NCBI GenBank assembly: GCA_003222535.1
Contig: QHWJ01000238.1
Location: forward strand, 5,270-69,269
Direction of reading: 5' to 3'
Length of the DNA stretch: 64,000 nt
DNA from: Acidobacteriota bacterium
Lineage (GTDB): Bacteria > Acidobacteriota > Vicinamibacteria > Vicinamibacterales > CAVVIG01
The notes beneath the pieces are model-generated. The model saw only the letters and a list, made by a program, of their open reading frames with translations, made no database searches and was not told the origin of the DNA. Numbering within the stretch: the first letter of the stretch is position 1; every line of letters begins with the position of its first letter. The translations under genes were made by a program, and so were the position numbers. Positions 10,604 to 63,151 of the stretch are shown piece by piece.

Positions 10604-10613
10604 AAAGGGCGGG

Positions 10614-12868: not shown

Positions 12869-12948
12869 GGTCCGCCTGAGGCGGACACTACGCGGTCGCT
12901 GAGAGTCCCCCTTCGTACGTGGCGTCCGGCTTCAGCCGGACGCCACGT
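12869..12948. repeat. Two REP-like hairpins (GGTCCGCCTGAGGCGGACACTACG and ACGTGGCGTCCGGC-TTCA-GCCGGACGCCACGT)
   Basis: The 14-bp-stem hairpin at 12917..12948 has its loop providing the stop codon of the upstream dehydrogenase ORF (end 12932). The family consensus GGTCCGGCTGAAGCCGGACAC recurs at 16770, 18130, 36362, 44489 and 44588. Confidence 0.75.
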
Positions 12949-14014
12949 CCGCCCGGTCAGGGCCGGATTTTCGCACGTGTGACGCAATATAGTCGCCTGT
13001 TTCACGCGTGCCGAGTGAGCCGCCGATCTCTTTCGTCCCGTTCCCGGTGACGACCGCGTCCTGCACGGCCGCTTCGATCGCGGCCGCTTCCTGTTTGAGC
13101 CCGAGAGACTCCAGCATGAGCGCGGCCGAGAGGATCGCGCCGATCGGATTGGCGACATTCTTCCCGGCAAGCGGCGGGGCCGACCCATGCACCGGCTCGA
13201 ACATCGATGTGCGGCCGGGATGGAGGTTGCCGGACGCCGCCAGGCCGAGGCCGCCCTGCAGCGCGGCCCCCAGGTCGGTAATGATGTCGCCGAAGAGGTT
13301 GTTGGTGACGATCACGTCGAATTGGGCCGGGTTCTGCACCATCAGCAGCACGAGGGCATCGATGTAGAGATGACGGGCCTCGACGCCGGGGTACTGCGGC
13401 GCCACTTCCTTGAGGACACGCTGCCACAAGGCATGACCCTGGGTCATCGCGTTGCTCTTGTCCGCCATGCACACGCGGCGCCGGCCGGTCGCCTTCGCGA
13501 ACTCGAAGGCGTGCTTCACGATCCGGTGCACGCCCTTGTACGTATTCAGCTCTTCCTGAATCGACACTTCATCGTTGGTCCCGGCCTTGAAGCGTCCGCC
13601 GATCCCGACATACAGGCCCTCGGTATTCTCGCGGAACACGACGAAGTTCACGTCCGCCACCGACCGATCCTTCAGCGGACAGAGCCGCGCGTCGAGCAGC
13701 TTGACCGGCCGGTAGTTGACGTAGAGATCGAGCTCGAACCGAATGCCGAGCAGGATGTCGCGCGCGTGCCGGTTGTCGGGCACGCGTGGATCACCGAGCG
13801 CGCCGATGAAGATCGCGTCGAAGTCGTCGCGCAGCATCGCGTAGCCGTTGGGCGGCATCGTGATGCCGGTCCGCAGGAAATGATCGGCGCTCCAGGGCAG
13901 CTTCTCGATATCGAACCGGTGCCCGAAGACGTCCCCGACCGCGCGCACGGCTTCGACCGCTTCCGCCGTCGTCTCGATGCCGATGCCGTCGCCGGGGATG
14001 ACAGCTATACGCAT
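12932..14014 (-). CDS. Isocitrate/isopropylmalate dehydrogenase family enzyme, tartrate / D-malate dehydrogenase (DmlA/TtuC)-like
   Basis: 360 aa with MRIAVIPGDGIG, VVFRENTEGLY, NLFGDIITDLGAAL and FEPVHGSAPPLAGKNVANP. The pattern is closer to DmlA/TtuC than to LeuB, from memory. Confidence 0.8.
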   Translation of the reverse strand: MRIAVIPGDGIGIETTAEAVEAVRAVGDVFGHRFDIEKLPWSADHFLRTGITMPPNGYAMLRDDFDAIFIGALGDPRVPDNRHARDILLGIRFELDLYVNYRPVKLLDARLCPLKDRSVADVNFVVFRENTEGLYVGIGGRFKAGTNDEVSIQEELNTYKGVHRIVKHAFEFAKATGRRRVCMADKSNAMTQGHALWQRVLKEVAPQYPGVEARHLYIDALVLLMVQNPAQFDVIVTNNLFGDIITDLGAALQGGLGLAASGNLHPGRTSMFEPVHGSAPPLAGKNVANPIGAILSAALMLESLGLKQEAAAIEAAVQDAVVTGNGTKEIGGSLGTRETGDYIASHVRKSGPDRADVASG

Positions 14015-14016
14015 CT

Positions 14017-16653: not shown

Positions 16654-16769
16654 CGATGAACGTCGCCCCCGCAGAGATCTCCAAAGACTTGACGGCTGAA
16701 AGGCTCGCCCTTCATCGCTCGCCTGAAGGCTTCGCGCTCCGCTGATGATGTCCTCGGCGTTCCTCGGTC

Positions 16770-16795
16770 GTGTCCGGCTTCAGCCGGACCGTGGT
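16770..16795. repeat. REP hairpin copy (reverse orientation)
   Basis: The sequence cgtgtccggcttcagccggaccgtgg lies immediately downstream of the M28 peptidase stop (16800). Confidence 0.75.
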
Positions 16796-16799
16796 GCCG

Positions 16800-18284
16800 T
16801 CAGTTCTGCTGCCCCGTTCGGACGGGCGTGTTCGCACGCGGCGGCGTGACGTAAGCCGTCACGAAGCTTTCGTGTCCGCCAGGGTCGACCGCAGCGACGC
16901 CGAAAACGTAGTCGTCGATCTGCATGTTGGGCAGAACCAGGTTGGTGACGTTGCCAACCAGCAGCTCATGCTGCCAGTCGGGGCCCCAGGCCTCGCGCCA
17001 GAAAATTCTGTACGCCGCCGCCCCCTGTACCGCATTCCATTTCAAGTTCGCATCGTAGCCGGACGGCGCGCGCGAGATCAGCGGCTGATTGCGGTCGCCC
17101 AGCACGCTCGGGGGCGGGGGCGCCAGCGCGAGCGTCGCGGCGGCGGCCGCGTTGACGCGCGCGTTCTGAGCGAGATACGGCAGCGAGATGCCTTCGTAGG
17201 TATCGCGCACGTCGTGCTGGCGAGTGAAGTTCTCCCGCGACTCCCGGAAGCCGACCGCGGTGAATCCGAGCTGGTTGTACGCCGAGTGGTCTCCACCGCG
17301 GCCGAACCGATCGGGACGCGCCATCGGACGCACTCTGTGCGACGGCACGTAGCGTCCGCCCCACCGCTGGACGAACCGGGCCAGCTCCCGCGACGGCGAA
17401 TCCTCGGGGCCTTCCGAATAGACGCGAATCGTCGCGCCGTCGACGATCCCGTTTCCACCGCGATCGCCACCGACGATGTCGTTGTTGAGAACCGCTTCGA
17501 TGGGAATCCTTTCGGCGACCGCTTTCTGCGCGTGCAGCCGCGCGCCCAGGAGCCCCTGCTCTTCGCCCACGTGGCACATGAACACGAGCGTCGCGTCGAA
17601 GTCGATGCCGCTCTGGCTGAAAATGCGCGCCAGTTCCATGGTCAACGCCGTACCGCTGCCGTCGTCGTTGACGCCGGGCGCGAGGTTGTCGAGCGGCGCG
17701 TTGGGATCGGCTGGCGCCGCCGCCGGCGCGTCGGGATCGCGCGGCGCGCCGCCCGCATTGGCGGCGCCCTGTCCGCCCGGACGAGCCACCGTGTCGTAGT
17801 GGCCGCTGACGTAGATTCGCCGCAGGCTTCGGCCCGGCAGAATCGCCATGACGTTGCGCATCTCGACGTTGCGCGTTACCCGGCCCTGCGGCGGGACCTG
17901 ATAGGTGTCGAAGCTGACCTTCAAATGCGGGTTGTAACTCGACATCTCGGTGAGGATCCATTGGCGCGCCGCCCCTATCCCGCGCGTCGTCGAGGTCGTC
18001 GACGAAAGCGAGCTGCGGGTCTCGAAGCTCTCGAGCTTCTTCAGAATGGCACCGAGACGCTCCTCCGACACCGTGCCGACGAGCTTGACGATCCGCGGAT
18101 CGAGATCGCCCGCGACGTCCTGCGCCGCCACGGTCCGGCTGAAGCCGGACACTACCGACACGACAACCGCCGTCAGCAGCGCCGCGCAGAAGCCGGTCGC
18201 GCGCGCGCACACCGAACCGTCGCCCGTCGCAGCGTCGCACCTCGCACTGTCGCACCCCGCACCTTCGCACGTCGTTCCAGTCAT
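16800..18284 (-). CDS. M28 family metallopeptidase with C-terminal FN3-like domain
   Basis: 494 aa with the M28 motifs GHYDTV, NDDGSGTALTMELARIF, HVGEEQGLLGA and NNDIVGG. The C-terminus (NLKWNAVQGAAAYRIFWR) is FN3-like. The ATG at 18284 overlaps the upstream stop (ATGA). Confidence 0.85.
   Translation of the reverse strand: MTGTTCEGAGCDSARCDAATGDGSVCARATGFCAALLTAVVVSVVSGFSRTVAAQDVAGDLDPRIVKLVGTVSEERLGAILKKLESFETRSSLSSTTSTTRGIGAARQWILTEMSSYNPHLKVSFDTYQVPPQGRVTRNVEMRNVMAILPGRSLRRIYVSGHYDTVARPGGQGAANAGGAPRDPDAPAAAPADPNAPLDNLAPGVNDDGSGTALTMELARIFSQSGIDFDATLVFMCHVGEEQGLLGARLHAQKAVAERIPIEAVLNNDIVGGDRGGNGIVDGATIRVYSEGPEDSPSRELARFVQRWGGRYVPSHRVRPMARPDRFGRGGDHSAYNQLGFTAVGFRESRENFTRQHDVRDTYEGISLPYLAQNARVNAAAAATLALAPPPPSVLGDRNQPLISRAPSGYDANLKWNAVQGAAAYRIFWREAWGPDWQHELLVGNVTNLVLPNMQIDDYVFGVAAVDPGGHESFVTAYVTPPRANTPVRTGQQN
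18130..18157. repeat. REP hairpin copy inside the M28 peptidase signal-peptide coding region
   Basis: The sequence cacggtccggctgaagccggacactacc is translated on the minus strand as VVSGFSRTV, within FCAALLTAVVVSVVSGFSRTVAAQD. Confidence 0.75.
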
Positions 18285-25884: not shown

Positions 25885-25957
25885 GTAGCGCGAAGGCTTC
25901 AGCCGAGCGTCAGTCCACGTACAACGCAGAAACCGCGGAACCCGCAGAGAAAAACGG
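25885..25957. repeat. Half-copies of two repeat families (GCGCGAAGGCTTCAGCCGAGCG and AACGCAGAAACCGCGGAACCCGCAGAGA)
   Basis: The string gtagcgcgaaggcttcagccgagcg is identical to 44448-44472. The string aacgcagaaaccgcggaacccgcagaga is identical to 23576-23603. Confidence 0.7.
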
Positions 25958-26937: not shown

Positions 26938-26940
26938 TTG

Positions 26941-27004
26941 GTGAATTGGTGAATTGGTGAATTGGTGAATTGGTGACTTGGTAAGTTGGTGAATTGGTAA
27001 GTTA
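26941..27004. repeat. Octamer tandem array (GTGAATTG x8, three variant units)
   Basis: The sequence gtgaattggtgaattggtgaattggtgaattggtgacttggtaagttggtgaattggtaagtta fills the spacer between the tsaD stop and the yjbQ start. The last unit contains the tsaD stop codon. Confidence 0.95.
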
Positions 27005-28066
27005 CAACACCAGGGCCGCGTCCGCGTTGAGATCGAAGGACGCCGTCGACCCGGCGCGGAATTTCCGGAGCCCGGCGGCGGCGATCATCGCCGCGTTGTC
27101 GGTCGACAGGGCCAGGCCTGGCAGAAACGTCGGCACGTCACGGCGTGCGCCACGCGCCTGCAACTCGGCCCGCAGCCGGCTGTTCGCCGACACGCCGCCG
27201 GCGACGCCGACGCTCAGGGCCTGATACCGTCGCGCCGCCACGAACACCCGATCGATGAGCGCGGTGACCACGACGCGCTGGAAGCTCGCGCAGATGTCGG
27301 CGATTTCCTGGTCTGTGAACGAAGCGCGCTTGGCCGCGTCGTGCTGGCGCGCCCGGACGTGGCGCAGCACCGCCGTCTTGAGGCCGCTGAAGCTGAAGTC
27401 GAGATCCCCCCTCAGCTCCGGCGCGTTCCGGTCGGCGTGCGTCAGACGCGTCGTCGGCAACACCACCGCCCGATCGTCACCGCTCTTGGCCAATCGATCG
27501 ATCACGGGCCCGCCGGGATACCCGAGGCCGAGCAGCTTCGCGACCTTGTCGTACGCCTCGCCCGCCGCGTCGTCGCGCGTGCGGCTCAGACGCTGATAGG
27601 CTCCCGGCCGTTCGACGAGATACAGGCTCGTGTGGCCGCCGGAGACGACGAGGACGACGGAGGGCAGCGGCAGCTCACCATTCTGCAGAACGAGCGATTC
27701 GATGTGGCCGGCAAGATGGTGGACGGCGACCAGCGGAAGGCGGGCGGCGGCGGCGGCGGCCTTGGCGAACGACACGCCGACGAGCAGCGATCCGACGAGC
27801 CCCGGCCCCTGCGTGACCGCGACCGCGCCGAGGTCGGGCCACGCCGTTCCGGCCTCGGCGAGCGCGCGCTCGACCACAGCGCAGATGTCGCGGATGTGCT
27901 GCCGGGACGCGAGCTCCGGCACGACACCGCCCCACTCGCGATGAATCGCCACCTGCGAGGCGACGACGTTGGAGCGGATCGCCCATGGCTCGGCGGCGTC
28001 GCCGGTCTCTTCGACAACGGCGGCCGACGTTTCGTCGCAGGAAGTTTCGATACCGAGAATACGCAT
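27002..28066 (-). CDS. tsaD: tRNA N6-adenosine threonylcarbamoyltransferase
   Basis: 354 aa with [24 protein letters not shown] and SGGHT motifs. Confidence 0.95.
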
Positions 28067-28072
28067 GGTGTG

Positions 28073-28171
28073 CGCTCGGCTGAAGCCTTCGCGCTCCAGA
28101 GTGTCGACGTCCGCTCGGCTGAAGCCTTCGCGTCCAAAGTGTCGACGTAGCGCGAAGGCTTTGGCCGATCG
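28073..28171. repeat. 38-bp tandem duplication of the CGCTCGGCTGAAGCCTTCGCG element plus an inverted partial copy
   Basis: cgctcggctgaagccttcgcgctccagagtgtcgacgt is followed by ccgctcggctgaagccttcgcgtccaaagtgtcgacgt and then agcgcgaaggctttggcc, which can pair with the second unit. Confidence 0.8.
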
Positions 28172-28216
28172 TCTTCTCTTCGAATCGCGCTACGAAAACG
28201 ACGGAGCGCGAAGCGT

Positions 28217-29272
<1,056 letters not shown>

Positions 29273-29291: not shown

Positions 29292-29439
29292 CGGTTCAGC
29301 GTTCAGCGTTCAGAGTTCAACGTTCGTTCTGTTCTAGGTTCTGGGTTCCAGGTTCCAGGTTCCGGGTTCTGGGTTCCTGGCGCGAAGCGCCGAACGAACC
29401 CTGCACCTCGAACCTTGAACCTTGAACTTGAACCCTGAC
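29292..29439. repeat. Periodic GGTTC-rich array facing a GAACC-rich array (long imperfect hairpin)
   Basis: The left side reads ggttcagcgttcagcgttcagagttcaacg..ggttccaggttccaggttccgggttctgggttcc. The right side reads gaaccctgcacctcgaaccttgaaccttgaacttgaaccc. It fills the spacer between the cdd stop and the mtnA start. Confidence 0.75.
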
Positions 29440-31105: not shown

Positions 31106-31297
31106 GGAACCACGAAGATCACGAAGATCACACGAAGTTCACGAAGAAGACCACGTTTTCAACGCAGAGCGCGCAAAGCACGCAGAGATTGTGGCGACCG
31201 CCGCCGCGGAGCGGCGCTCAGTCTTTTTCGTGTTCTTCGTGTCCTTCGTGCTTTCGTGGTTGCCTTTGCTTTCTGCGCGCCCTGCGTTCAACGTCGT
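31106..31297. repeat. Composite repeat: CACGAA array + CGCAGA arm, then TTCGTG array + TCTGCG arm (interleaved inverted repeats)
   Basis: The four blocks, in order, are: A = cacgaagatcacgaagatcacacgaagttcacgaagaagaccacg; B = aacgcagagcgcgcaaagcacgcagaga; A' = tcgtgttcttcgtgtccttcgtgctttcgtgg; B' = ctttctgcgcgccctgcgttcaacgtcgt. Confidence 0.75.
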
Positions 31298-34084: not shown

Positions 34085-36304
34085 GTGGCCCAGGTATCCC
34101 AGCTGTCCGCCGAGCTCACGCGGAGCCTGCTGCAACTGGCCCGCGCTCTGCTGGTGGCCGTACGGAACTGGACGCTGTATCCGCCCGAGCATCCGACGGT
34201 CGCCGTTTCGATCAAACGACTGGCCGCCGCGATTCGCGAATCGTCGTTCGGCGCCGCGTTCTCGCTCGGCGTCACGCCGGACACGCTGATGATCGAAGGC
34301 ACGCTGGCGGACGCCAGCCAGACCGGCATCGCCGAAGCCGCCGCGCTCCTCCACGACCGCGACATCCTGGCGGTCACCTTCGTGGGCGACGTTCCGCAGG
34401 AGGCCATTCACGCGCTCCTGCGCGTGCTGACGCTGGACGGTGCGGAACGGCGCCGCCGTGGCGGACCGAAATGCATCTGGGAGACCGCAGGTCACCCGTC
34501 TATCTCGCTCGAGCAGATCGACTACGACAAGGTCCTCGCGCGAAACGAAGGCGAGATCGCCGAACCGGCCAAACGCGACGACCTCTGGCGCTCGATCGTG
34601 CTGTCGATTGCCGGCGGCCAGAAAACGGTCTTCGACGAGCGCGCCCAGCAGCGTCTGCTCGCCATCGCCGGCAGTTCCGGCGACATCGCCGATCTCGCGA
34701 CGGCGGTGATGGCGCCGATGTGCGCGCCGGACGGCTCGCCCATGCTCACCTCGCAGGCGGCCATCGTCCTGGCGGCATTCCGCCACCTCTCGAACATCGT
34801 CTCGGTGATGTCGCCCGACCGCATGCCCGAGGTCATGAGCAACCTGGCCGCCGCGGCCACGCAGCTCGATCCGCACGTCGTCATGCAGGTGCTGCAGAGC
34901 CAGGACGACGACCCCACCGGTGTGGCGGTCGTCAGCGGCATCGCCGGGGCGTTCGACGATGTGAAGGTCGCGCAACTGCTGGCGACCGCGCTCGCGCTCG
35001 ATGGTCAGGCGTCGGACCGCCTCGCCACGATCTTCAACACGATTGCCCCTGACGAGGATCGCAAGAAGCGTGTCCTGACGCTCACGCGCAGCCTCCTGAG
35101 CGAAACCGATTTCGGGCGATCGGGACAGTTCCAGGTGCTCTGGGCCTCGACCGAAGCGCTGCTCGTCTCGTACAACGACAAGCCGTTTCTGTCCGATAAG
35201 TACAGGGCCGAGCTCGACGGCGCAGGCGGCCGTGCGGAGCGGATGTCAGTCGTCGATCTGCCGTCGGAGCTGCCCGACTGGCTGGAGAGCCTCGGCCAGG
35301 CGAACGTCCGGGTCCTGTCGGTCACGATGCTGATCGATCTCTTCACGCTCGAGCTCGATCCCGACCGCGGCTCTGAAATCGCCGCGGACCTGGAAGCGCT
35401 GTCCGAGGACCTGCTGATGTCCGGCTCGTATGAGGAGGCGGTGACGGTGACCCGCGCCCTCCAGGCGCGCGGCACGACGGCCGGCAGCATCGGACATGAG
35501 GCGAGCCGGCTGGCGCTCGATCGGCTCGGCGAATCGCTGGCGATGCGCGAAACCGTGGGGCTCATCGGCGACGTGGATGAGGCTGGCTGGGCCGCGATCC
35601 AGGCGGTGATCGACGCCGTCGGCGTCGCCAGCGTCGAGGCATTGAAGGCGGCGGTCTCGGTCGAGCACGACGGGATCGCCACCGAGCGCGCCGAGGCGAT
35701 CATCGTCGGCTTCGGACGGCGTTCGGTGAGTCGCGTCGCGTCGCTGGTCGGGGACTCGCGCTGGTTCGTCCAGCGCCGCGGCGCGCGGCTGCTCGGCCTG
35801 ATCGGCGCCGCCGAGGCCGTGCCGATGCTGCAGCCGCTGCTGCGCCAGACCGATCCGCGGGTGGCGCGAGCGGCCATTACGGCGCTGGGTGCGATCCCGG
35901 ATCCGGCGGCGGTGCGGGCCATTCAGACGGTCCTGCGGTCGGCGACCGGCACGCTGCGCCGCGCCGTCATCGACGCGCTGGTCGCCGAACGCGACCCGCG
36001 GGTGGTCCCGATGCTCGTGCGCATCATCGAGGAGAGCCAGGCGCTCGGCAAAGATCATGACGTCGTGCTCGAGACGATCGAGGGCCTCGCGACCGTCGGC
36101 ACCGACGCGGCCGTGCCGGTCCTCGCGACCATGGCGCAGCGGCGCGCGCTGTTCGGCCGGAAGAAGCTGCGCGCGCTGAAGGAGCGCAGCGTCGACGCGC
36201 TCGCGCGTGTCGGCGGCGCGAAAGCCAATACGGTCCTCAAGGAGGCGGCGCAGACCGGCGACCGGATGCTCAAGAAGATTGTTGGACAGCGGGGTCGAAG
36301 CTAG
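34085..36304 (+). CDS. Large HEAT-repeat protein, paralog A1 (unassigned N-terminal and central regions)
   Basis: 739 aa with a GTG start. The C-terminal third has PBS-lyase/HEAT-like repeats (LLGLIGAAEAVPMLQPLLRQTDPRVARAAITALGAIPDPAAV..). The N-terminal module is shared with the HD-GYP neighbours. Confidence 0.75.
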   Translation: MAQVSQLSAELTRSLLQLARALLVAVRNWTLYPPEHPTVAVSIKRLAAAIRESSFGAAFSLGVTPDTLMIEGTLADASQTGIAEAAALLHDRDILAVTFVGDVPQEAIHALLRVLTLDGAERRRRGGPKCIWETAGHPSISLEQIDYDKVLARNEGEIAEPAKRDDLWRSIVLSIAGGQKTVFDERAQQRLLAIAGSSGDIADLATAVMAPMCAPDGSPMLTSQAAIVLAAFRHLSNIVSVMSPDRMPEVMSNLAAAATQLDPHVVMQVLQSQDDDPTGVAVVSGIAGAFDDVKVAQLLATALALDGQASDRLATIFNTIAPDEDRKKRVLTLTRSLLSETDFGRSGQFQVLWASTEALLVSYNDKPFLSDKYRAELDGAGGRAERMSVVDLPSELPDWLESLGQANVRVLSVTMLIDLFTLELDPDRGSEIAADLEALSEDLLMSGSYEEAVTVTRALQARGTTAGSIGHEASRLALDRLGESLAMRETVGLIGDVDEAGWAAIQAVIDAVGVASVEALKAAVSVEHDGIATERAEAIIVGFGRRSVSRVASLVGDSRWFVQRRGARLLGLIGAAEAVPMLQPLLRQTDPRVARAAITALGAIPDPAAVRAIQTVLRSATGTLRRAVIDALVAERDPRVVPMLVRIIEESQALGKDHDVVLETIEGLATVGTDAAVPVLATMAQRRALFGRKKLRALKERSVDALARVGGAKANTVLKEAAQTGDRMLKKIVGQRGRS

Positions 36305-36361
36305 GAGCGTGTGATGGGACTCCTCGGGTGGGGTCCGCATTCAGTCGGACCCAATCGGCGC

Positions 36362-36437
36362 TGGTCCGGCTGAAGCCGGACACTACCGAGTCCCACCACA
36401 GGCTGCGGGAGCGCGGCGACCCTTGAAAGGGTCGACC
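36362..36437. repeat. Two REP hairpins (GGTCCGGCTGAAGCCGGACACTACCGA and GGCGACCCTTGAAAGGGTCGACC)
   Basis: Both are exact family members of elements seen at 18130/44489 and at 6292/53034. Confidence 0.8.
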
Positions 36438-37818: not shown

Positions 37819-37866
37819 GAGTTGGTGAGTTGGTGAGTTGGTGAGTTGGCGAGTTGGTGAGTTGGT
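37819..37866. repeat. Octamer tandem array (GAGTTGGT x6, then degenerate to about 37900)
   Basis: The sequence gagttggtgagttggtgagttggtgagttggcgagttggtgagttggt starts at the nucleotide after the B1 stop. Confidence 0.9.
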
Positions 37867-37915
37867 GATGGTGAGTGGAGGGTGGGGACTGAGTGGTGAT
37901 TGAGCGCGGCGAGAC

Positions 37916-41565: not shown

Positions 41566-41650
41566 GATCCATCAAGTCTCAAGGCTCAAGGCTCACGTTT
41601 CAACGCTCGGGCCTGGACGTTCACGTCTCAACGCTCGAAGGAAGGCCCAC

Positions 41651-43261
41651 GTGCGGAAGATCGCCACCGCGGTCGCCCTCGCGACCCTGCCCGGGCCGGG
41701 GCCGCATGCGGCACCGGAGCTTCGGCCGAAGCTCGCCGTGATCATCGTCGTGGATCAGATGCGGGCCGATTACGTCGACCGGTTCAACGGCCAGTGGACA
41801 CGCGGCCTCAAGCGGATGGTCACGCAGGGCGCCTGGTTCGAGCACGCGGCGTATCCGTACTTGTCGACACTAACCTGTGCCGGCCATGCGACGATTTCCA
41901 CCGGTTCGTTCCCGCACGTGCACGGGGTGTTTCAGAACACGTGGTGGGACCGCGACGCGCGGAAGCTGATGACGTGCACCGAGGATCCGCGGGCGACGGC
42001 CATCGGCTACGGCGCGCCCGTGACGGGCGGAGACAGCGCCTACCGGCTGCAGGTGCCGACGTTCGCCGACCAGATGCGCACGCGTCGCCAGGCCCGCGTC
42101 GTCGCGCTGTCGCTCAAGGACCGCAGCGCCGTCATGCTGGCGGGCCACGGCGGCGATGCGGTCGTCTGGCTGAGTAACACGCTCGACGGGTGGGAAAGCT
42201 CCTCGGCGTACGCGCAAGCCCGCCTACCGGCCATCGAGGCGTTTCTCGAGGCCAATCCGATGGCGGCCGATTTCGGCAAAACGTGGGATCGCCGCCTGCC
42301 GGTGGCCTCGTATTCCGGCCCGGATGAGGGCGCCGGCGAAGCGCCGCCGGAGGGATGGACGCGGAAGTTTCCGCACACCCTGAACGGCGCCAGGGGCAAA
42401 CCGGACGCCGTGTTCATGGCGCAATGGGTGCGGAGCCCGTTTGCCGACGCCTATCTCGGGCGATTTGCGGCGTCGCTCGTGAGATCGCTGGAGCTCGGCA
42501 AACATGAGAGTACCGACGTACTCGCCGTCAGCTTCTCGAGTCCCGACTTCGTGGGGCACGCCTTCGGTCCCCGGAGCCATGAGGTCCAGGACGTCTACGC
42601 CCATCTCGACCAGACGCTCGGCACGCTGTTCGACGGGCTCGATGCGCAGGTCGGGAAGGATCAGTGGGTCGTCGGGCTCACCGCCGATCACGGCGTCACG
42701 CCGATTCCGGAGCAGCTCGTGGCCGAGAGCACAGATGCTGGCCGCATCAATGGCGCCGCCATCTCCGAAGCGGTCGAGCGGGTGGTGAGGCCGGTGCTCG
42801 GCGAGGGACGGCACGTCACGATGCTGAACATCAACGATCTGTACTTCGAACCTGGCGTCTACGCGGGAATTCGCAAGTCGCGCGAGCTGCTGGACGCCGT
42901 GATGGCGGCCATCGCCGCGCGTCCCGGCATCTTGCGCGTCTTTCGCGCCGAAGAGGTGCGCGGCGCCGAGAAATCGAAAGACCCGCTGCTGCGCGCCGCC
43001 GCGCTCAGCTATTTCCCGGGGCGCAGCGGCGATCTGATCCTCGTGCCGAAGCCCGGATGGATGATCTCCAACGCCGGCACGACGCACGGGTCGTCGAGCG
43101 ACGACGATCAGCGCGTGCCGCTGCTGTTCATGGGTCCCGGCATCAAGCCGGGAACGTATCAGCAGCCGGTCACGCCGGCCGATCTCGCCCCGACACTCGC
43201 GGCCCTGTCAGGGCTGTCTCTCTCCAAAGCCGAAGGTCATGCTCTGCCATGCATCCAGTAA
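41651..43261 (+). CDS. Alkaline phosphatase superfamily protein (type I phosphodiesterase / nucleotide pyrophosphatase-like)
   Basis: 536 aa with a GTG start. It has IIVVDQMRADY, TLTCAGHATISTGSFPHVHG (nucleophile Thr region) and a late DHG/HGS metal-ligand pattern. Confidence 0.8.
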   Translation: MRKIATAVALATLPGPGPHAAPELRPKLAVIIVVDQMRADYVDRFNGQWTRGLKRMVTQGAWFEHAAYPYLSTLTCAGHATISTGSFPHVHGVFQNTWWDRDARKLMTCTEDPRATAIGYGAPVTGGDSAYRLQVPTFADQMRTRRQARVVALSLKDRSAVMLAGHGGDAVVWLSNTLDGWESSSAYAQARLPAIEAFLEANPMAADFGKTWDRRLPVASYSGPDEGAGEAPPEGWTRKFPHTLNGARGKPDAVFMAQWVRSPFADAYLGRFAASLVRSLELGKHESTDVLAVSFSSPDFVGHAFGPRSHEVQDVYAHLDQTLGTLFDGLDAQVGKDQWVVGLTADHGVTPIPEQLVAESTDAGRINGAAISEAVERVVRPVLGEGRHVTMLNINDLYFEPGVYAGIRKSRELLDAVMAAIAARPGILRVFRAEEVRGAEKSKDPLLRAAALSYFPGRSGDLILVPKPGWMISNAGTTHGSSSDDDQRVPLLFMGPGIKPGTYQQPVTPADLAPTLAALSGLSLSKAEGHALPCIQ

Positions 43262-43599
43262 GGCGCGCGCAGCCCGACGCCTTTTCATCCCGCGTGCTCT
43301 CGGTCGTCCGGCGCATTCCGCCCGGGCGAGTGGCGACATATGGCGAGGTGGCCGCGCTCGCGGGACGTCCGCGCGCGGCGCGCGCCGTCGGCAACATCAT
43401 GCGCGGTTGCGGCCGCCCCGACGTGCCCTGTCACCGCGTGATCGCCGCGGGCGGGCGCCTTGGCGGATACGGCGGGAGCGAGACGCTCAAGCGGTCGCTG
43501 CTGGCGGCGGAAGGCGTGATCGTCTCCGGCTCGCGCATCCGCGAGCTCGACCGGGTCCGCTGGCCCGCGACCCGCAGGCGAGCGCCGCGAACGTCCTGA
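43249..43599 (+). CDS. MGMT family protein (methylated-DNA-protein-cysteine methyltransferase DNA-binding domain only)
   Basis: The ATG at 43249 is in the frame of ORF 42664..43599. It has IPPGRVATYGEVAALAG and the PCHRV active-site motif. At about 116 aa, it lacks the N-terminal Ada/Ogt domain. Confidence 0.85.
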   Translation: MHPVRRAQPDAFSSRVLSVVRRIPPGRVATYGEVAALAGRPRAARAVGNIMRGCGRPDVPCHRVIAAGGRLGGYGGSETLKRSLLAAEGVIVSGSRIRELDRVRWPATRRRAPRTS

Positions 43600-43632
43600 A
43601 CGTTCAGACCTGTTTTTCTCGTATCTGCTAGC

Positions 43633-44217
43633 GTGACCGCCCCTAAGCAACGCCCGCCAATCCCTTTCCCGTCTAAAGAGGCGACGGTGGGCTCCGCAGA
43701 GGACCTTGTCGCCCGGTGTCAGGCGGGCGACGTCGAGGCGTTCGAGACGATCTACCGGCAGCACGCGTCACGGCTCTATACGCTGGCGTGTCGGATGGCC
43801 GGGTCGCCCGAAGACGGCGAAGACCTGCTCCAGGAGATCTTCCTCCAGGCGTATCGGAAGCTGGGAAGCTTCAAAGGCGACGCGACGCTGGGCACGTGGC
43901 TGTATCGGCTGGCGCTCAACCATTGTCTTGATTACGTGCGCAGCCGGCGGGCGAAAATGAACAAGCTGACGTCGGCCATCGAGGGTGAGATCGCATGCGA
44001 ACCGGCGGCCCGCCGTGAAACGCCGATCGCGCGCCTGGATCTGGAGCGCGCCGTCGAACGGCTGCCTGAAGGGTGCCGCGAGGCGTTCGTCCTGCACGAC
44101 GTCGAAGGGTTCGATCACAAAGAGGTCGGCAGGCTGCTCGGCATCGCCGAGGGCACCTCGAAATCGCAGGTGTTCAAGGCGCGCATGAAGCTGCGCGCGT
44201 TGCTCGGGAAACCGTAA
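43633..44217 (+). CDS. ECF-type RNA polymerase sigma-70 family factor
   Basis: Region 2 (FETIYRQHASRLYTLACRM..DLLQEIFLQAY) and region 4 (EAFVLHDVEGFDHKEVGRLLGIAEGTSKSQVFKAR). Confidence 0.9.
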   Translation: MTAPKQRPPIPFPSKEATVGSAEDLVARCQAGDVEAFETIYRQHASRLYTLACRMAGSPEDGEDLLQEIFLQAYRKLGSFKGDATLGTWLYRLALNHCLDYVRSRRAKMNKLTSAIEGEIACEPAARRETPIARLDLERAVERLPEGCREAFVLHDVEGFDHKEVGRLLGIAEGTSKSQVFKARMKLRALLGKP

Positions 44218-45089
44218 TGCATCCGAATGAGGACGCCATCCACGCTTACGTCGACGGGTCGCTCGGCGCCGCCGAACGGACCGGGATCGATCGGCACGTC
44301 GCATCGTGCGCGTCGTGCCGTCAGCTTCTCGAGGATCTGCGCGAGATCCTCCGAGCGGCGAAAGCGCTCGAGCTGCGCGAGCCGCCGGCCCGCGTCTGGT
44401 CGCGTCTCGAGCGCGCGATCACACTCGAACGCGACGACGCCGAACCCGTAGCGCGAAGGCTTCAGCCGAGCGGCATGGCGAGCGACACAGGTCCGGCTGA
44501 AGCCGGACACGACCGGAGGGCGTCGGGAGCGCGAGGCCCGGCCTCTGGAGCGCGAACGCTTCAGCCGAGCGGCACGGCGAGCGACACAGGTCGGGCTGAA
44601 GCCGGACACGACCGGAGGGCGACATGGCTCGCCGCGGCGGCGGCGGTCGTGCTCGCGACGGCCGTCGGCCTCCGCTTCATGCCGTCGGGCGGTGAGAGTG
44701 TCCGGAGCGGTGCGCCCGCCACGACCACGGTCGCGGAAGGCGACCGAGCGGAGTCGGTCGAAACGGAGCTGCGGCAGGCCGAAGCGCATTACGAGAAGGC
44801 CATCAAGGGGCTCGAACAGATTGCGAGCGCCGAGCGGAACGCGCTGGACCCGCGAACCGCGGCGACGCTGCAGAGGAATCTCGCGGTGATCGATCAGGCC
44901 ATCACCGAGAGCCGTGCGGCGGTGCGGTCCGAGCCCGCCAGCGAGCCGGCGCAGCAGAGCCTCCTCGAAAACTTCAAGAGCAAGATCGCGCTGCTGCAGG
45001 ACACCGTGGCGCTCATCAACGAAATGCGCAAGGGCAACGAGGCTGGAGCGGCGCGCATCGTATCCGGGCTCAAACAAAAGGGCGACTGA
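44217..45089 (+). CDS. Anti-sigma factor (zf-HC2 type), single-pass membrane protein
   Basis: The ATG overlaps the sigma-factor stop (TAATG). It has an HxxxCxxC motif (HVASCASCRQLL) and a TM helix WLAAAAAVVLATAVGL. The linker contains two in-frame REP-derived units. Confidence 0.8.
   Translation: MHPNEDAIHAYVDGSLGAAERTGIDRHVASCASCRQLLEDLREILRAAKALELREPPARVWSRLERAITLERDDAEPVARRLQPSGMASDTGPAEAGHDRRASGARGPASGARTLQPSGTASDTGRAEAGHDRRATWLAAAAAVVLATAVGLRFMPSGGESVRSGAPATTTVAEGDRAESVETELRQAEAHYEKAIKGLEQIASAERNALDPRTAATLQRNLAVIDQAITESRAAVRSEPASEPAQQSLLENFKSKIALLQDTVALINEMRKGNEAGAARIVSGLKQKGD
44451..44621. repeat. Two 72-nt composite REP units 99 nt apart, inside the anti-sigma CDS
   Basis: gcgcgaaggcttcagccgagcggcatggcgagcgacacaggtccggctgaagccggacacgaccggagggcg (44451-44522) is repeated with 4 substitutions at 44550-44621. 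Confidence 0.9.
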
Positions 45090-45090
45090 C

Positions 45091-46116
45091 ATGCGATTCA
45101 CACTGCCGTTCGTGATGGCCGGGCTCGCGATGGCGGCCGTTTCAGCCGGGGCGCAGGATGCCGGCCAGCGGATCGTGCGGCGCGACGCGGTACGGGCTGG
45201 TGCGCGCGCCTACCAGGGCCGCAGCGGGCCGGAACAGACCGAGCGGTTCTCGCGGAAGGTGAAGGTCGGCCGCGATGCCCGGGTCAGCATCGACAACGTC
45301 GCCGGCAACATCGTGGTCACCGGCGGGTCGGGCGACGAGGTCTCGATCGAGGCGGTCAAGCGGACGCGCGGGGACCGAGGCGAGCTGGCGAAGGTCCGGA
45401 TCACGGTCGACGAGCGGGCCGGTCGGGTCGACGTGCGCACGGAGGGCGAGCAGAATCGCGGCTGGCGCGGCAGCCAGGTGTCGGTCGATTACACCGTGAC
45501 CGTGCCAGCGTCTGCGTCGGTCGATCTGCATTCGGTGTCCGGCTCGATGAGAGTCACCGGGGTGCGTGGATCGCTTCGGGCCGAGACCGTGAGCGGGAAT
45601 GTGACGACGACCGACACGCCGAAGCTGGAAGTCGCCAAGAGCATCTCGGGCGACGTGTCGCTCACGGGCGCCGCCGCCGAGGGCGATCTGTCGGCCGCCA
45701 GCGTGAGTGGAAGCGTGACGGCCAGAGGGCTGAAGGCGCACGGGCTCGACCTCGGCTCGATCAGCGGCGACATCATGCTCAGCGACGTGACGTGCGATCG
45801 CCTGGGCATCAAGTCGGTGAGCGGCAGCGTCGAGTACGCGGGCTCCCTCGTGAAAGGCGGCCGCTACGAGATCAACTCGCACTCGGGGAGCGTGCGCCTC
45901 ACGCTCTCGAACCCGCCCGGTTTCGAGCTCGCCGCGAACAGCTTCAGCGGCACGATTCGATCCGATTTCCCGATGATCATCGGCGGCGACCGCGATCGGG
46001 ACCGTGGGCGCCGGCGCGGGGGCAACAACCGGTCGATTCGCGCCACATTCGGAGACGGCAGCGCGACGGTCACCGTCCGAACCTTCAGCGGCGAAATCGT
46101 CATTGCCAAACGCTAA
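45091..46116 (+). CDS. DUF4097-like beta-helical protein (putative adhesin-fold, sigma/anti-sigma-associated)
   Basis: The ATG at 45091 gives the signal peptide MRFTLPFVMAGLAMAAVSAGAQD. It has repeated SGSV/SGDV/SGNV turns (SVSGSMRVTG, VSGNVTT, ISGDVSLTG, VSGSVTARG, ISGDIML). Confidence 0.7.
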   Translation: MRFTLPFVMAGLAMAAVSAGAQDAGQRIVRRDAVRAGARAYQGRSGPEQTERFSRKVKVGRDARVSIDNVAGNIVVTGGSGDEVSIEAVKRTRGDRGELAKVRITVDERAGRVDVRTEGEQNRGWRGSQVSVDYTVTVPASASVDLHSVSGSMRVTGVRGSLRAETVSGNVTTTDTPKLEVAKSISGDVSLTGAAAEGDLSAASVSGSVTARGLKAHGLDLGSISGDIMLSDVTCDRLGIKSVSGSVEYAGSLVKGGRYEINSHSGSVRLTLSNPPGFELAANSFSGTIRSDFPMIIGGDRDRDRGRRRGGNNRSIRATFGDGSATVTVRTFSGEIVIAKR

Positions 46117-57440: not shown

Positions 57441-57606
57441 GACACCACGAAACGCACGAAAGAAATACACGAAGCGCACGAAAAAGAATTCTTTGTGCTT
57501 TACGTGTTCTTGCGGCCGCCGTCAGGAAAAAGAATCTGTTTTTTCGTGGCTTTCGTGGCTTTTCGTGGCTTACGTGTTTTTGTATTATTTTCGTGTCTTT
57601 CGTCGC
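57441..57606. repeat. CACGAA-rich array, GAATTC-centred hairpin, then TTCGTG-rich array
   Basis: The left part is acaccacgaaacgcacgaaagaaatacacgaagcgcacgaaaaagaattctttgtgctttacgtg. The right part is ttttcgtggctttcgtggcttttcgtggcttacgtg..ttttcgtgtctttcgtcgc. It lies between convergent stops at 57437 and 57606. Confidence 0.8.
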
Positions 57607-60614: not shown

Positions 60615-61028
60615 ATGATCCGCCGCGCTCGCATGACCATCGATCGTCTCAAGAAGCGAATGGACGGCCGCTTCACGGCGCTGGAGCGACGGGTGAACGG
60701 CCGTTTCACCGAACTGGAGCGGCGGATGAACGGCCGCTTCACCGAACTGGAGCGGCGGATGAACGGCCGCTTCACAAAACTCGAGCGCCGGACGAACCGC
60801 CGCTTTGCGTCCGTGGACGCTCGATTCGACGACGTCGACGCTCGATTCGCCGCAGTAGACGCCCGTCTGGACCGAATGGAAGCGCGCATCAGCGCCCGAT
60901 TGGATTCGGTCATCGAGAAGCTTGATACTCACTTTTTGATCAACAAAAACCATTTCGATCATCACACGGTGATACTGCATGAGCACGACGACCGTCTCAA
61001 AGACCTCGAGCGGCAAACGGGCACGTGA
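60615..61028 (+). CDS. Hypothetical coiled-coil protein built of 11-residue and 7-residue tandem repeats
   Basis: The ATG at 60615 is in ORF 60387..61028. The repeats are MDGRFTALERRV / NGRFTELERRM x2 / NGRFTKLERRT / NRRFASV, followed by DARFDDV / DARFAAV / DARLDRM. The 3' half is visibly AT-richer than its surroundings. Confidence 0.5.
   Translation: MIRRARMTIDRLKKRMDGRFTALERRVNGRFTELERRMNGRFTELERRMNGRFTKLERRTNRRFASVDARFDDVDARFAAVDARLDRMEARISARLDSVIEKLDTHFLINKNHFDHHTVILHEHDDRLKDLERQTGT
60662..60793. repeat. 33-bp tandem repeat, 4 copies (plus a fifth degenerate one)
   Basis: The units at 60695-60727 and 60728-60760 differ by a single nucleotide. Confidence 0.9.
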
Positions 61029-61383
61029 ACGAGCGCGCGTTTCCGCTGCGAAGGAGGCATTCATACGCGCCGTCCGCACGCTGCGTCCGACGAGGCATAC
61101 CGGCGGCCGGAAACGCGAAGCGCGCCGGTGGCTCGATGTGCTCGCCGCGCGGAGTACAAACGGGGTACGGTGCCCCAATCCGATCACGATCGAGGAAGGC
61201 GCACGACTTCGCAGCCAGGCGTTTGACGATCTCAAGGCGAGCGACAAAGTGCTGTTCGACGCTGTCATGGAATGCATGGATGATCGAATGATCGCCGACT
61301 ATGGGATCACGATCGCCGAGTGGAGCGCTCGGGGGCGTCGCCGCATGCGCCGACTGGCCAAGATCCGCGCGACGCTCAAGTAG
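60979..61383 (+). CDS. Hypothetical basic protein
   Basis: 134 aa ORF overlapping the previous ORF by 50 nt in another frame. It has an Arg/Lys-rich N-terminus and no recognisable domain. Coding status is uncertain. Confidence 0.35.
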   Translation: MSTTTVSKTSSGKRARERARVSAAKEAFIRAVRTLRPTRHTGGRKREARRWLDVLAARSTNGVRCPNPITIEEGARLRSQAFDDLKASDKVLFDAVMECMDDRMIADYGITIAEWSARGRRRMRRLAKIRATLK

Positions 61384-61448
61384 TCGCCGTCGCTCTCCCT
61401 GCGTTCGGGCCGCGGCGCACCTCCAGCGCTTCGGCGAGGCTCGCCGGA

Positions 61449-61476
61449 TTCACAGGGGGCTGAGGCGGGGTATACT
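61449..61476 (+). promoter_or_regulatory. Candidate sigma-70-type promoter for tRNA-Leu
   Basis: TTCACA (61449-61454), a 16-nt spacer, then TATACT (61471-61476), about 33 nt upstream of the mature tRNA 5' end. Confidence 0.4.
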
Positions 61477-61508
61477 GAGCGTTCCGGCCCGCGAAGTTTT
61501 TCACCACT

Positions 61509-61594
61509 GCGGAAGTGGCGGAACGGCAGACGCGCTAGCCTCAGGAGCTAGTTGGAGCAATCCAGTGGGGGTTCGAATCCCCCCTTCCGCACCA
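61509..61594 (+). tRNA. tRNA-Leu (anticodon CAG), class II with long variable arm, encoded CCA
   Basis: The cloverleaf was folded by hand. Acceptor stem GCGGAAG/CTTCCGC, D-stem GCG/CGC, anticodon stem CTAGC/GCTAG with loop CTCAGGA, variable arm TTGGAGCAATCCAGT, T-arm GGGGG-TTCGAAT-CCCCC, discriminator A plus CCA. Confidence 0.93.
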
Positions 61595-61602
61595 TCGACG
61601 AA

Positions 61603-61634
61603 AAGGGGCCAGCGTTTCCTGGCCCTTTGTCGTT
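61603..61634 (+). terminator. Rho-independent terminator after the tRNA
   Basis: The stem GGGGCCAG/CTGGCCC has the loop CGTTTC and is followed by TTTGTCGTT. Confidence 0.6.
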
Positions 61635-61789
61635 CACGAACGGACTTGCCCATAGATACGCCTTCAAGACAGATCGGGATCTGCCTGTTTCGAGCGCCAG
61701 CTGATCCGGGCATCCGGCGCGGACTGTATTCTTCGCTCCGCAAGACGCGACGCCGTCGATCGCCTGTCAGGAGGGACTACGATCAGCAG

Positions 61790-63151
61790 GTGTTGCCTCC
61801 TCTTCGGACGGTCAGAGCCGCCTTCCTCGGCGGCTTCATGCTGATCTTCACGGTATGGCTGACGTCGACCTACTACGTCACCGGGCGCCTCGCGGAGGCC
61901 CAGGCGCGGAGTGCGTCCATTTACGCGCAATTCCTGAGGGATCAGGAGCTGCTCTTCACAATCAGCCGCCAGGTGCTGCTCGGATCCGTCTACGTTCGCG
62001 ACGCGTTGATTGAGTCCGCGGAACAGTCTGCAGCCGTTGCCCACTATCAGATACGAAACCTGCAAGCGCAGGTCGAGCGGGAGCTGGAGCACTACGAGAC
62101 GATCGACTCCTCCGTCGACGCCGCGGCCTGGAGGCGCCTCGAGAAGGAGCTTCGTGATTACTGGGAAACGGCGGCGCGGCTGACGGCGCCGGAATCAGCC
62201 AGCCGGACATGGAAGGCGGCGTCCTCACTGCTTCATACGCAGGTGATCCAGCAGCGAGAGGTGATCACTCAGTTGTCGGACGAGATCCGTCAGATGATGG
62301 CGCGCGACTACCTCCAGGAAGAAAAGCAGCTCAACGACGTACACGTTCAACTGCGCCGGCGCTTGTGGGAGACAACGGCCGTTGCCGTGATCCTCGGATT
62401 TGGCGTGGCGTTCCTGGCGACGCGGTACGCCGCCCGGCTCGAAGCGCAGATTCGTGAAGACCACGCTGAAGTCGCTCGCAACAGAGGGGATTTGCAGCGT
62501 CTATCGGAACGGCTCGTACGCGTGCAGGAGGACGAGCGGCGGACCGTCGCGCGCGAGCTCCACGACGAGATCGGGCAGGCCTTGACGGCCGTGAAGGTCG
62601 AGCTGGCGGTCGCCCTACGCTCAGTGGGCGCCGACCGACGGGCCGTGGCGGCGCTCGCTGAAGCGCGAATGGTGACGGAACACGCGTTGAGCAACGTGCG
62701 CGACTTGTCGCAATTACTTCGGCCGGCCATGCTCGACGACTTCGGGTTGCCCGACACGCTCAAGTGGTATCTTCGGAAGTTCTCCGATCGCACAGGCATC
62801 CGGACCGAGCTGGTCGACGATCGCCTCTCCGAGCGGCTCCCCACGGACGTCGAAGTGTCAGCCTACCGGGCCATCCAGGAGGGACTCACCAACGTGTCCC
62901 GACACGCCCACGCAACCTCGTGTCGCGTGTTCGTACAGCGCCTTCCGTCATCGCTCATCGTCACCGTCGAAGACGACGGGCGCGGATTCCGGGCAGGCCG
63001 CGATTCGACCGGCGATCAGGGCGCGGGACTCGGACTGGTCGGCATTCGCGAGCGGGCTGTCAATCTGGGTGGCACCTTCCGGATTGAAAGCGGTGACAAA
63101 GGCACTCGCCTCACCATTGAGTTCCCGCTGACCGCCGGTGCGCAGGCGTGA
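61790..63151 (+). CDS. Sensor histidine kinase, NarX/DegS-like (HisKA_3 + HATPase_c)
   Basis: Part of ORF 61301..63151, whose 5' part runs across the tRNA and is rejected. The start is taken at the GTG at 61790 (alternative: ATG at 61838), just before TM1 (AAFLGGFMLIFTVWLTSTYYV). A second TM follows, then the H-box VQEDERRTVARELHDEIGQ, an N-box (LTNVSRHA) and a G-box (DDGRGF..GLGLVGIRER). Confidence 0.85.
   Translation: MLPPLRTVRAAFLGGFMLIFTVWLTSTYYVTGRLAEAQARSASIYAQFLRDQELLFTISRQVLLGSVYVRDALIESAEQSAAVAHYQIRNLQAQVERELEHYETIDSSVDAAAWRRLEKELRDYWETAARLTAPESASRTWKAASSLLHTQVIQQREVITQLSDEIRQMMARDYLQEEKQLNDVHVQLRRRLWETTAVAVILGFGVAFLATRYAARLEAQIREDHAEVARNRGDLQRLSERLVRVQEDERRTVARELHDEIGQALTAVKVELAVALRSVGADRRAVAALAEARMVTEHALSNVRDLSQLLRPAMLDDFGLPDTLKWYLRKFSDRTGIRTELVDDRLSERLPTDVEVSAYRAIQEGLTNVSRHAHATSCRVFVQRLPSSLIVTVEDDGRGFRAGRDSTGDQGAGLGLVGIRERAVNLGGTFRIESGDKGTRLTIEFPLTAGAQA

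Follow-up and report, generated by a model that had tools for sequence, protein, structure and literature searches.

In-frame duplication of a REP doublet in the linker of a predicted zinc-binding anti-sigma factor from Vicinamibacterales

The anti-sigma factor gene at 44217..45089(+) of the window, i.e., the whole 64,000-nt stretch of contig QHWJ01000238.1 that was analyzed, carries within its coding sequence two copies of a 73-nt unit that is composed of repetitive extragenic palindromic (REP) sequences. The best explanation, to which a probability of about 0.8 is given, is that a REP doublet was tolerated in the disordered linker of the anti-sigma factor, was duplicated and was then partly deleted by recombination between the repeats, with little or no functional consequence. 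The analysis draws on a protein search that returned 1,966 homologs and on the DNA of 139 related loci taken from genome and metagenome collections. These homologous loci belong to the Vicinamibacterales (Acidobacteriota subgroup 6).

The repeated unit and its host gene

A repeat finder detected a 73-nt direct repeat at 44450-44522 and 44549-44621, with 70 of 73 positions identical (96%) and starts 99 nt apart. The longest exact stretch common to both units is 29 nt, the repeat amounts to 1.74 copies, and the units differ at three sites (44458 G/C, 44476 T/C and 44494 C/G). Both copies lie inside open reading frame (ORF) 44217..45089(+). As 99 nt correspond to 33 codons, the copies are in frame, which agrees with a preliminary description of this DNA that reported a unit occurring twice, 99 nt apart and in frame, in the linker of an anti-sigma factor. 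The translation includes ARRLQPSGMASDTGPAEAGHDRRA and ARTLQPSGTASDTGRAEAGHDRRA, then WLAAAAAVVLATAVGL; the unit peptides and the transmembrane (TM) helix directly after them are therefore found as they had been written. The linker stretch reads ...DDAEPVARRLQPSGMASDTGPAEAGHDRRASGARGPASGARTLQPSGTASDTGRAEAGHDRRATWLAAAAAVVLATAVGL..., with the peptide ARRLQPSGMASDTGPAEAGHDR within it. The ORF is open across both units, the frames reading VARRLQPS and GPAEAGHYR being free of stop codons, and five of the six frames are open in each module (for module A in its GGAG-headed form).

Each unit consists of REP-A in forward orientation, a 17-nt spacer, REP-B in inverted orientation and a tail, with the heads pointing outward. 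In unit 1 (44450..44522, +), REP-A (44448..44473, +) starts with a GTAG tag at 44448-44451, contains the imperfect palindrome GCGCGAAGGCTTCAGCCGAGCG and is read as V-A-R-R-L-Q-P-S. REP-B (44490..44513, -) is inverted relative to REP-A, has a 7-bp stem (GTCCGGC/GCCGGAC) with a TGAA loop and a GTCG tag, which is a mutated GTAG, and is read as G-P-A-E-A-G-H-D. The predicted fold of this unit contains an 11-bp stem between A and B. In unit 2 (44549..44621, +), REP-A2 has the head GGAG (44547-44550), REP-B2 spans 44589-44612, and both hairpins are weakened by substitutions (AAGG>AACG and CCGG>CGGG). The 26 nt between the units comprise a 5-nt filler and a 21-nt partial REP-A (44526..44546, +; GGAGCGCGAGGCCCGGCCTCT), which is homologous to a 21-mer located upstream of REP-A in the loci L060, L061 and L098 and, by manual comparison, identical to that of L061 and L098 at 17 of 21 positions. 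The 73-nt unit is an inverted GTAG-type REP doublet that is similar to a REPIN (REP doublet forming a hairpin) or BIME (bacterial interspersed mosaic element), heterotypic in that A is paired with B.

The host gene follows a gene for a sigma-70 family sigma factor of the extracytoplasmic function (ECF) type (43633..44217, +; Pfam Sigma70_r2, 4.2e-17, and Sigma70_r4_2, 5.2e-16; NCBIfam sigma70-ECF, 93 bits with a cutoff of 42.9), the stop codon of which overlaps the anti-sigma start (TAATG). The anti-sigma ORF itself encodes 290 aa, comprising a zf-HC2 domain, a linker, one TM helix and a helical C-terminal domain. The match to Pfam zf-HC2 (PF13490) reaches 35.2 bits, with a cutoff of 22.2, and H27, C31 and C34 are invariant in 30 orthologs, forming the HxxxCxxC signature of zinc-binding anti-sigma factors. 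The zinc-binding anti-sigma host that had been proposed earlier is thus recovered as a zf-HC2 domain encoded beside an ECF sigma gene. The family profile weakly matches RslA (3hug_B, E 0.002), DdvA and RsiW. For the C-terminal helical domain, no named family was matched in Pfam or NCBIfam.

The repeats are located in a hypervariable cytoplasmic juxtamembrane linker (44421..44624, +; residues 69-136), which with its 68 aa is the longest among about 135 orthologs. It is followed by the TM helix WLAAAAAVVLATAVGLRF (44625..44678, +), in which a WLxAAAA motif is invariant in orthologs. An AlphaFold2 model based on 30 orthologs predicts helices at residues 5-74, the TM helix at 132-153 and further helices at 174-288. 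Residues 75-131 are without secondary structure; the predicted local distance difference test score (pLDDT) is below 50 over residues 48-172, with block means of 26-41 over 75-131. According to this model, the repeats would sit in an unstructured tether directly before the membrane helix and outside the folded domains, which corresponds to the position in the linker that the preliminary description had assigned to them.

The composition of the linker is different from that of its flanks. GC content at third codon positions is 0.66 compared to 0.82 and 0.86 in the flanks, GC content at second positions is 0.72 compared to 0.50, and the codon log-likelihood is -0.21 compared to +0.22 and +0.36. 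Such a composition is consistent with read-through of DNA that was originally non-coding.

Dispersed REP families

Motif A (GCGCGAAGGCTTCAGCCGAGCG) has eight matches in the window with at most three mismatches (16716-, 25888+, 28073-, 28112-, 28150+, 28206+, 44451+ and 44550+; the sign indicates the strand), and motif B (GGTCCGGCTGAAGCCGGACAC) has six (12922-, 16770-, 18132+, 36363+, 44490+ and 44589+). In shuffled sequence, no match is expected for either motif, so that 14 matches in 64 kb stand against an expectation of 0. The other copies that had been placed at 25889, 18130 and 36362 do exist, 1-2 nt away (25888, 18132 and 36363). The accompanying statement that the motifs are intergenic elsewhere is correct for almost all of the dispersed copies, the exception being the copy at 18132, which lies inside an M28 peptidase ORF.

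Module A has the consensus G(T/G)AGCGCGA(A)GGCTTCAGCCGAGCG, and module B, on the opposite strand, reads GTAGTGTCCGGCTT(C/T)AGCCGGACC in most copies. The head of A is GTAG at 44448, 25885 and 28146, and GGAG at 44547, 28073, 16716 and 28203. The tag of B is GTCG in both copies of the window gene and GTAG in L138. Both modules have an 11-nt core in common (GGCTTCAGCCG / CGGCTGAAGCC), and it is this core that pairs in the predicted fold of unit 1. The stem of B is a perfect 7 bp (-8.2 kcal/mol, z -2.4); A consists of two 3-bp stems around an internal loop and is weak alone (z 0.06).

A census with nhmmer profiles covered 1.36 Mb (the window and the loci, with duplicate loci removed), of which 86% was called coding by a crude gene caller based on codon bias; this caller misses some small genes, e.g., a PF01035 gene near 43250-43600, and its coding and intergenic calls are approximate. 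At E<=1e-3, A was found 35 times in linkers, 17 times in intergenic DNA, 5 times at gene edges and 0 times within a coding sequence, and the corresponding counts for B were 20, 11, 7 and 1. Outside the anti-sigma linker this amounts to 28 intergenic copies, 12 at gene edges and one in a coding sequence, i.e., the 18132 copy in the window. A and B are dispersed families that are almost entirely extragenic outside the anti-sigma linker, and the REP-B consensus is highly conserved in extragenic copies from many different metagenome-assembled genomes.

The extragenic sites have several architectures. A cluster of four REP-A copies (28073..28227; 28073-, 28112-, 28150+ and 28206+) is located between two minus-strand genes and contains an inverted doublet, with a DNA fold z of -3.65. 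A REP-A is paired with a REP-B between convergent genes (16716..16790, -), in the arrangement A< B> at 16716-16791, where the arrowheads indicate orientation. A REP-B is accompanied by a B-like partner hairpin (36331..36383, +; DNA fold z -4.05) downstream of the gene at 34085..36304, and a single REP-A with a GTAG head is found at 25888..25909(+). The arrangement A< A> occurs five times at extragenic sites in the census. In the linkers, the modules are convergent with GTAG outward, and at extragenic sites they are mostly divergent. Clusters of alternating orientation with heterotypic pairs presumably resemble the Y and Z REPs of the BIMEs of E. coli.

Two copies in the window touch coding sequences of other genes. 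A REP-B variant (12922..12942, -) spans the 3' end of ORF 12932..14014(-), the TGA of its hairpin loop being the stop codon of this ORF. About 30 nt from it (region 12880-12942), there is a related REP, GTAGTGTCCGCCTCAGGCGGACC, the stem of which has a compensatory swap of GGC/GCC to GCC/GGC. The REP-B at 18132..18152(+) falls within the sequence that codes for the signal peptide of the M28 peptidase (ORF 16800..18212/18284, -) and encodes VSGFSRT, which stands just before a cleavage-like site, VAA|Q. M28 orthologs down to about 66% identity keep a VVSGFSRT-like sequence; more distant ones have non-REP sequence of equal length (LASGLSQP, LASAFGQT), and the 18132 copy is therefore unlike a simple length-adding insertion. 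In several M28 orthologs, VRLKPDTT, which is REP-B in another frame and upstream of the true start, is part of annotated N-terminal extensions. As a further observation, two REP-A copies form a tandem pair with a 39-nt period (28073-28148) directly upstream of the start of ORF 27002..28066(-), the N-terminus of which may be that of a TsaD/Kae1-like protein.

The junction of the sigma and anti-sigma genes is a further site of REPs, and many of the gene-edge copies in the census are located there, in lineages other than that of the window. The short spacer at this junction is filled, in many orthologous loci, by one or two REPs that lie 20-90 nt upstream of the anti-sigma start. These are REP-A in L006, L017, L020 and L093, and REP-B in L133, L018, L097, L069, L064, L102, L014, L022, L034 and L092. 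The GTAG head supplies the TAG stop codon of the sigma gene in many of them (e.g., L006, L017, L020, L093, L133 and L018). In the window clade, the genes overlap (TAATG), and neither a REP nor a spacer is present at this junction.

The linker across orthologs

For every locus, the linker was delimited by two conserved anchors, ERAI and WLAAAA, and extracted. Identity to the window protein is 60-100% outside this segment; the linker itself ranges from 12 to 68 aa (about 135 orthologs). Its DNA is pieced together from modules of four or more palindromic repeat families, which are in frame in all cases. REP-A is translated as GARGFQPSG, ARRLQPSG or GARAFQAS when forward and as DARLKGSRS or ARLKASRY when inverted, and inverted REP-B is translated as GPAKAGHY or GPAEAGRY. 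A second hairpin family, D, is present as the doublet GAAAAGGGGCCGTACCCCTTTTC ... GGAAAAGGGGTACGGCCCCTTTTC and is read as KGPYPF...KRGTAPF. Family E consists of short tandem-repeat arrays followed by their inverted copies and is read as STQNPQNPQ...LRVLRSTS. Families D and E also have intergenic copies, both in the window and in other loci.

Short-period tandem arrays (7-9 nt), each with a different unit, are present in many intergenic regions of the window (2384-2459, 10606-10641, 11950-12016, 14013-14078, 23620-23645, 26446-26520, 26938-26998, 29294-29438, 31111-31258, 37819-37876, 41572-41595 and 57541-57576). Examples of their units are GCCCTCA (10.7 copies), TTGGTGAA (7.6 copies) and GAGTTGGT (7.5 copies). 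Several arrays are followed by an inverted array, e.g., (AAGTCTG)n by (TCAGACT)n at 11950-12016, like family E of the linkers.

With nhmmer profiles, 13 linkers were assigned the architecture A> A<, 10 A> B<, 11 B< alone and 2 A> B< A> B< (the window and L138). A rough neighbor-joining order calculated from the flanks does not separate A> A< from A> B<; the two are intermingled even in the window clade (at least 90% identity), and D as well as E is found at several unconnected positions. Other linkers have no module, such as those of 12-16 aa in L042-L044, L003 and L018. The preliminary description had named as a counter-case orthologs that carry the same linker in genomes lacking REPs; what was found is that distant orthologs in REP-poor backgrounds have linkers of 12-25 aa without a module. 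At 0.72-0.90 identity to the window outside the linker, the density of extragenic A and B is 0.81 per 10 kb and modules are present in 12 of 34 linkers; below 0.60 identity, the density is 0.15 per 10 kb and modules are present in 0 of 15. The median linker length goes from 46 aa in the closest group (identity of at least 0.9) to 23 aa in the most distant one. Module presence and linker length thus fall with distance from the window and with lower local density of extragenic REPs.

The reading frame is generally maintained. In 121 of the 140 extracted ORFs (the window and the 139 loci), the N-terminal CxxC and the C-terminal motif are in one frame, the remaining ones being mostly partial loci or failures of the automatic start choice. 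The gene is accordingly intact, and the pseudogene that had been put forward as an alternative is not what is seen.

Strain-level alleles and the probable order of events

Three independent assemblies contain the two-unit allele, namely those of the window, L058 and L138. In L058, which shares 99.8% identity with the window, the two units are the same. L138, which comes from a different archive, also has two units, and its second REP-B is nearer to the consensus (GGTCCGG...CACTAC). These assemblies bear on the explanation that the duplication is an assembly error or that the gene is broken at the repeat. Metagenome assemblies can indeed mishandle repeats, the 99-nt period is not listed by Tandem Repeats Finder, and there are only 1.74 copies. 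The same two-unit sequence is, however, found in the three assemblies, which come from JGI and ENA, a single open frame spans both conserved domains, as in the 121 ORFs mentioned above, and the units differ at three positions, hence there is no trivial graph loop. An artefact or pseudogene is therefore rejected as extremely improbable.

A fourth locus, L059 (= P0002), has a DNA identity of 99.4-99.5% to the window, carries one unit and encodes a protein that is 33 aa shorter, which is the kind of 33-residue difference that a comparison of orthologs had been proposed to look for. The single unit of L059 is chimeric: at 44458 it matches copy 1, and at 44476 and 44494 it matches copy 2. This pattern is expected from a crossover inside the 17-nt stretch that is identical between the units. 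Moreover, L059 is without the 21-mer that is kept by the outgroups L060, L061 and L098. The single unit is best read, from these site patterns, as a recombinational deletion. The single-unit allele was also considered as the ancestor and was rejected as less parsimonious, since it needs three extra substitutions and a de novo 21-mer; the deletion needs no extra changes.

A clean 99-nt tandem duplication was rejected as well, as the repeat covers 73 of the 99 nt and the rest is the 5-nt filler and the 21-mer that outgroups also carry. The proposal that a palindromic element was taken up as linker sequence and then expanded in tandem is consequently retained for the uptake and duplication of a dispersed REP doublet, and is amended for the type of expansion, which would be a 78-nt duplicative insertion. 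Only the duplication appears to be recent; the REP occupancy of the linker would be old and recurrent across the order and is not confined to this genome.

Linker indels are found in four near-identical pairs, all of them in frame and multiples of three: 99 nt between the window and L059, 15 nt between L079 and L076 (DNA identity 99.56%), 21 nt between L061 and L098 (99.2%) and 15 nt between L007 and L125 (98.4%). A phase-variable contingency repeat was rejected, as these indels all leave the ORF open. The same four pairs, together with a linker range of 12-68 aa, could also suggest that linker length is adaptive and rapidly tunable, with repeat-driven in-frame changes adjusting the tethering of the sigma-binding domain or its release after intramembrane proteolysis. 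However, indels that are exclusively in frame are what purifying selection against frameshifts leaves, the composition resembles that of unameliorated non-coding DNA, and no change is seen in the conserved WLAAAAA boundary or in the two domains. Adaptive tuning of the linker is thus considered very unlikely.

Proposed mechanism and alternatives

The favored course of events is as follows. A REP doublet would have entered the linker in the ancestor of the REP-rich lineages and would have been tolerated because this segment is unstructured. The ancestral state would have been the 21-mer followed by one unit. A 78-nt copy (A-spacer-B plus 5 nt) would then have been placed 21 nt upstream of the original, giving the window allele with its 99-nt periodicity. 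REP-A heads may have been the sites of the recombination or template switching that produced this copy; insertion mediated by a REP-associated tyrosine transposase (RAYT) is a less likely cause. Homologous recombination between the two units would subsequently have deleted 99 nt, giving the sister strain L059. As an outcome, the flexible tether that connects the sigma-binding domain to the membrane would be 33 residues longer. These additional residues are most likely neutral or nearly so, and the functional effect of the changed spacing is probably small.

Several points weigh against this scenario. Firstly, the single unit of L059 could be a collapse in short-read assembly, though the exact shared stretch is only 29 nt. 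Secondly, no RAYT transposase matched better than E=2.8 in a tblastn search of the window and the 139 loci (1.38 Mb) with an approximate RAYT-like query, a weak test, and the mobility of the REPs is something that we infer. Thirdly, the A, B and A' modules always have one reading frame and one order, A> X<, which fits one ancient insertion and vertical descent. Lastly, modules can be 0-3 mismatches from the REP consensus in linkers where the four-fold degenerate sites of the flanks are only 55-65% identical to the window; examples are a B module in L078 (26 of 26 positions) and A modules in L082 and L111 (25 of 25). Simple neutral decay is insufficient to explain such near-consensus modules beside diverged four-fold sites. 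As far as the sequences go, they point to gene conversion with REPs elsewhere in the genome as donors, to site-specific insertion that has occurred repeatedly or to constraint on the sequence.

The linker might favor the landing or the retention of REP doublets, with a GTAG-bearing REP remnant repeatedly recruiting the REP machinery or gene conversion refreshing the copy, or the hairpins might be under selection as an RNA element inside the operon that controls the balance between sigma and anti-sigma factor. This combined possibility is regarded as unlikely. If the landing-site or gene-conversion version were true, a coding segment would be evolving in concert with the non-coding repeat population of the genome.

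On a rival view, selection would act on the hairpins as an RNA or DNA element in the operon, either by stabilizing or processing the mRNA, thereby uncoupling the sigma factor and the N-terminal anti-sigma domain from the rest, or by ribosome pausing, the reading frame being a mere constraint. That different hairpin families (A/A', A/B, D/D' and E/E') are found at one place in different lineages speaks for this, as do the REPs in the sigma-to-anti-sigma junction of many orthologous loci and the closeness of linker modules to the consensus, including rare GGT and GGA codons, beside flanks with the four-fold identities given above. An action of REPs on mRNA has also been proposed in literature (PMC3733652). 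On the other hand, the RNA fold of 44440-44630 is no better than that of shuffles (z -0.94). The fold z-scores of the units are -1.4 and, for unit 2, in which both stems are lost, -0.6, which is not exceptional, compared to -3.65 and -4.05 for the extragenic doublets. No evidence of selection for structure inside the anti-sigma gene was seen in these fold z-scores against shuffles. In addition, many orthologs have decayed modules or none, basal lineages have linkers of 12-25 aa, and in the window clade the junction of the sigma and anti-sigma genes is free of REPs. Selection for an RNA or DNA element is accordingly judged quite improbable, and toleration of a REP doublet in a disordered linker is preferred.

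Other features of the window

The operon continues with a gene for a DUF4097 protein (toastrack, LiaG-like; 45091..46116, +; Pfam DUF4097, 3.2e-19, and an NCBIfam LiaG match), and the gene order sigma, anti-sigma and DUF4097 recurs in L138 and L139. Within this gene, 51 nt at 45223-45273 (17 codons, SGPEQTERFSRKVKVGR) are missing from L058. The segment is bordered by a GGCCGC direct repeat and represents an in-frame microhomology indel between strains.

The predicted ORF 60615..61028 contains a tandem repeat of a 33-nt unit (GCGGATGAACGGCCGCTTCACCGAACTGGAGCG; 60656-60805, 4.5 copies, 85% match), which would correspond to a protein repeat of 11 aa if it is translated. A tRNA at 61509-61591 (58.8 bits), not flagged by the crude gene caller, overlaps the listed ORF 61301..63151. 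At Rfam gathering thresholds, this tRNA is the only match in the window, and there is no known RNA family at the repeats.

Comparison with known systems

The host protein resembles class I zinc-binding anti-sigma (ZAS) factors with a zf-HC2 domain, such as RslA, RsiW, ChrR and DdvA, in its N-terminal HxxxCxxC, the adjacent ECF sigma gene and the single TM helix. Unlike these proteins, it has a C-terminal helical domain without a match to a named family, and a linker that is hypervariable and, as it appears, REP-derived.

The repeats are similar to the REPIN/RAYT system (Bertels and Rainey 2011, PMC3116915; Messing et al. 2012, PMC3479197) in that REPs are inverted, separated by a short spacer, headed by GTAG and conserved across related genomes. 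They differ from it in that the A/B doublets of the linker have only an 11-bp stem between the REPs and in that no RAYT was found in the 1.38 Mb with the weak query.

Palindromic repeats that are inserted in frame in genes have been described in Rickettsia as Rickettsia palindromic elements (RPEs) (Ogata et al. 2000, as cited in PMC3733652). According to that citing account, both cases involve palindromes that are translated as extra segments of otherwise conserved and apparently functional proteins. RPEs are longer (about 100-150 nt), are members of other families, with RPE-4 and RPE-6 being of the CGTC type (PMC3733652), and reside in a reduced intracellular genome. Tandem expansion within a linker like the one described here is not reported in the account given in PMC3733652.

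The closest parallel is the survey of GTAG-tagged REP families, which are frequently inverted dimers, are mostly extragenic and favor sites downstream of ORFs (PMC3733652; Di Nocera, De Gregorio and Rocco 2013, BMC Genomics 14:522). In these families, GTAG can supply a TAG stop codon (PMC3733652). A minority of the REPs is wholly inside ORFs and in frame, with dimers encoding 20-30 aa and clusters 43-82 aa, and it has been suggested that intragenic REPs sit in flexible linkers or loops; in orthologous recB genes, REPs are found at about one site (PMC3733652). Every one of these listed features of intragenic REPs is seen in the anti-sigma linker as well. In-frame intragenic REP dimers and clusters are thus a phenomenon that has already been described, and the present case is no new kind of system.

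The Vicinamibacterales and an ECF anti-sigma host are absent from that survey, and a literature search found no description of REPs in Vicinamibacteria. Intragenic REPs are herewith extended to an abundant but poorly studied soil lineage. New aspects, in addition to lineage and host gene, are the presence of several repeat families, at least four, in one orthologous linker, the heterotypic doublet and the copy-number polymorphism at strain level, i.e., recent expansion and contraction between near-identical strains. For annotation, it is relevant that GARGFQPSG, GPAKAGHY, ARLKGSRS, VSGFSRT and VRLKPDTT recur in predicted proteins; these are repeat-derived and not functional motifs. The repeats can drive rapid in-frame length change in a signaling protein, with the folded domains undisturbed. 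Through comparison of both orthologs and strains, the case shows how protein sequence can be formed from non-coding palindromic repeats.

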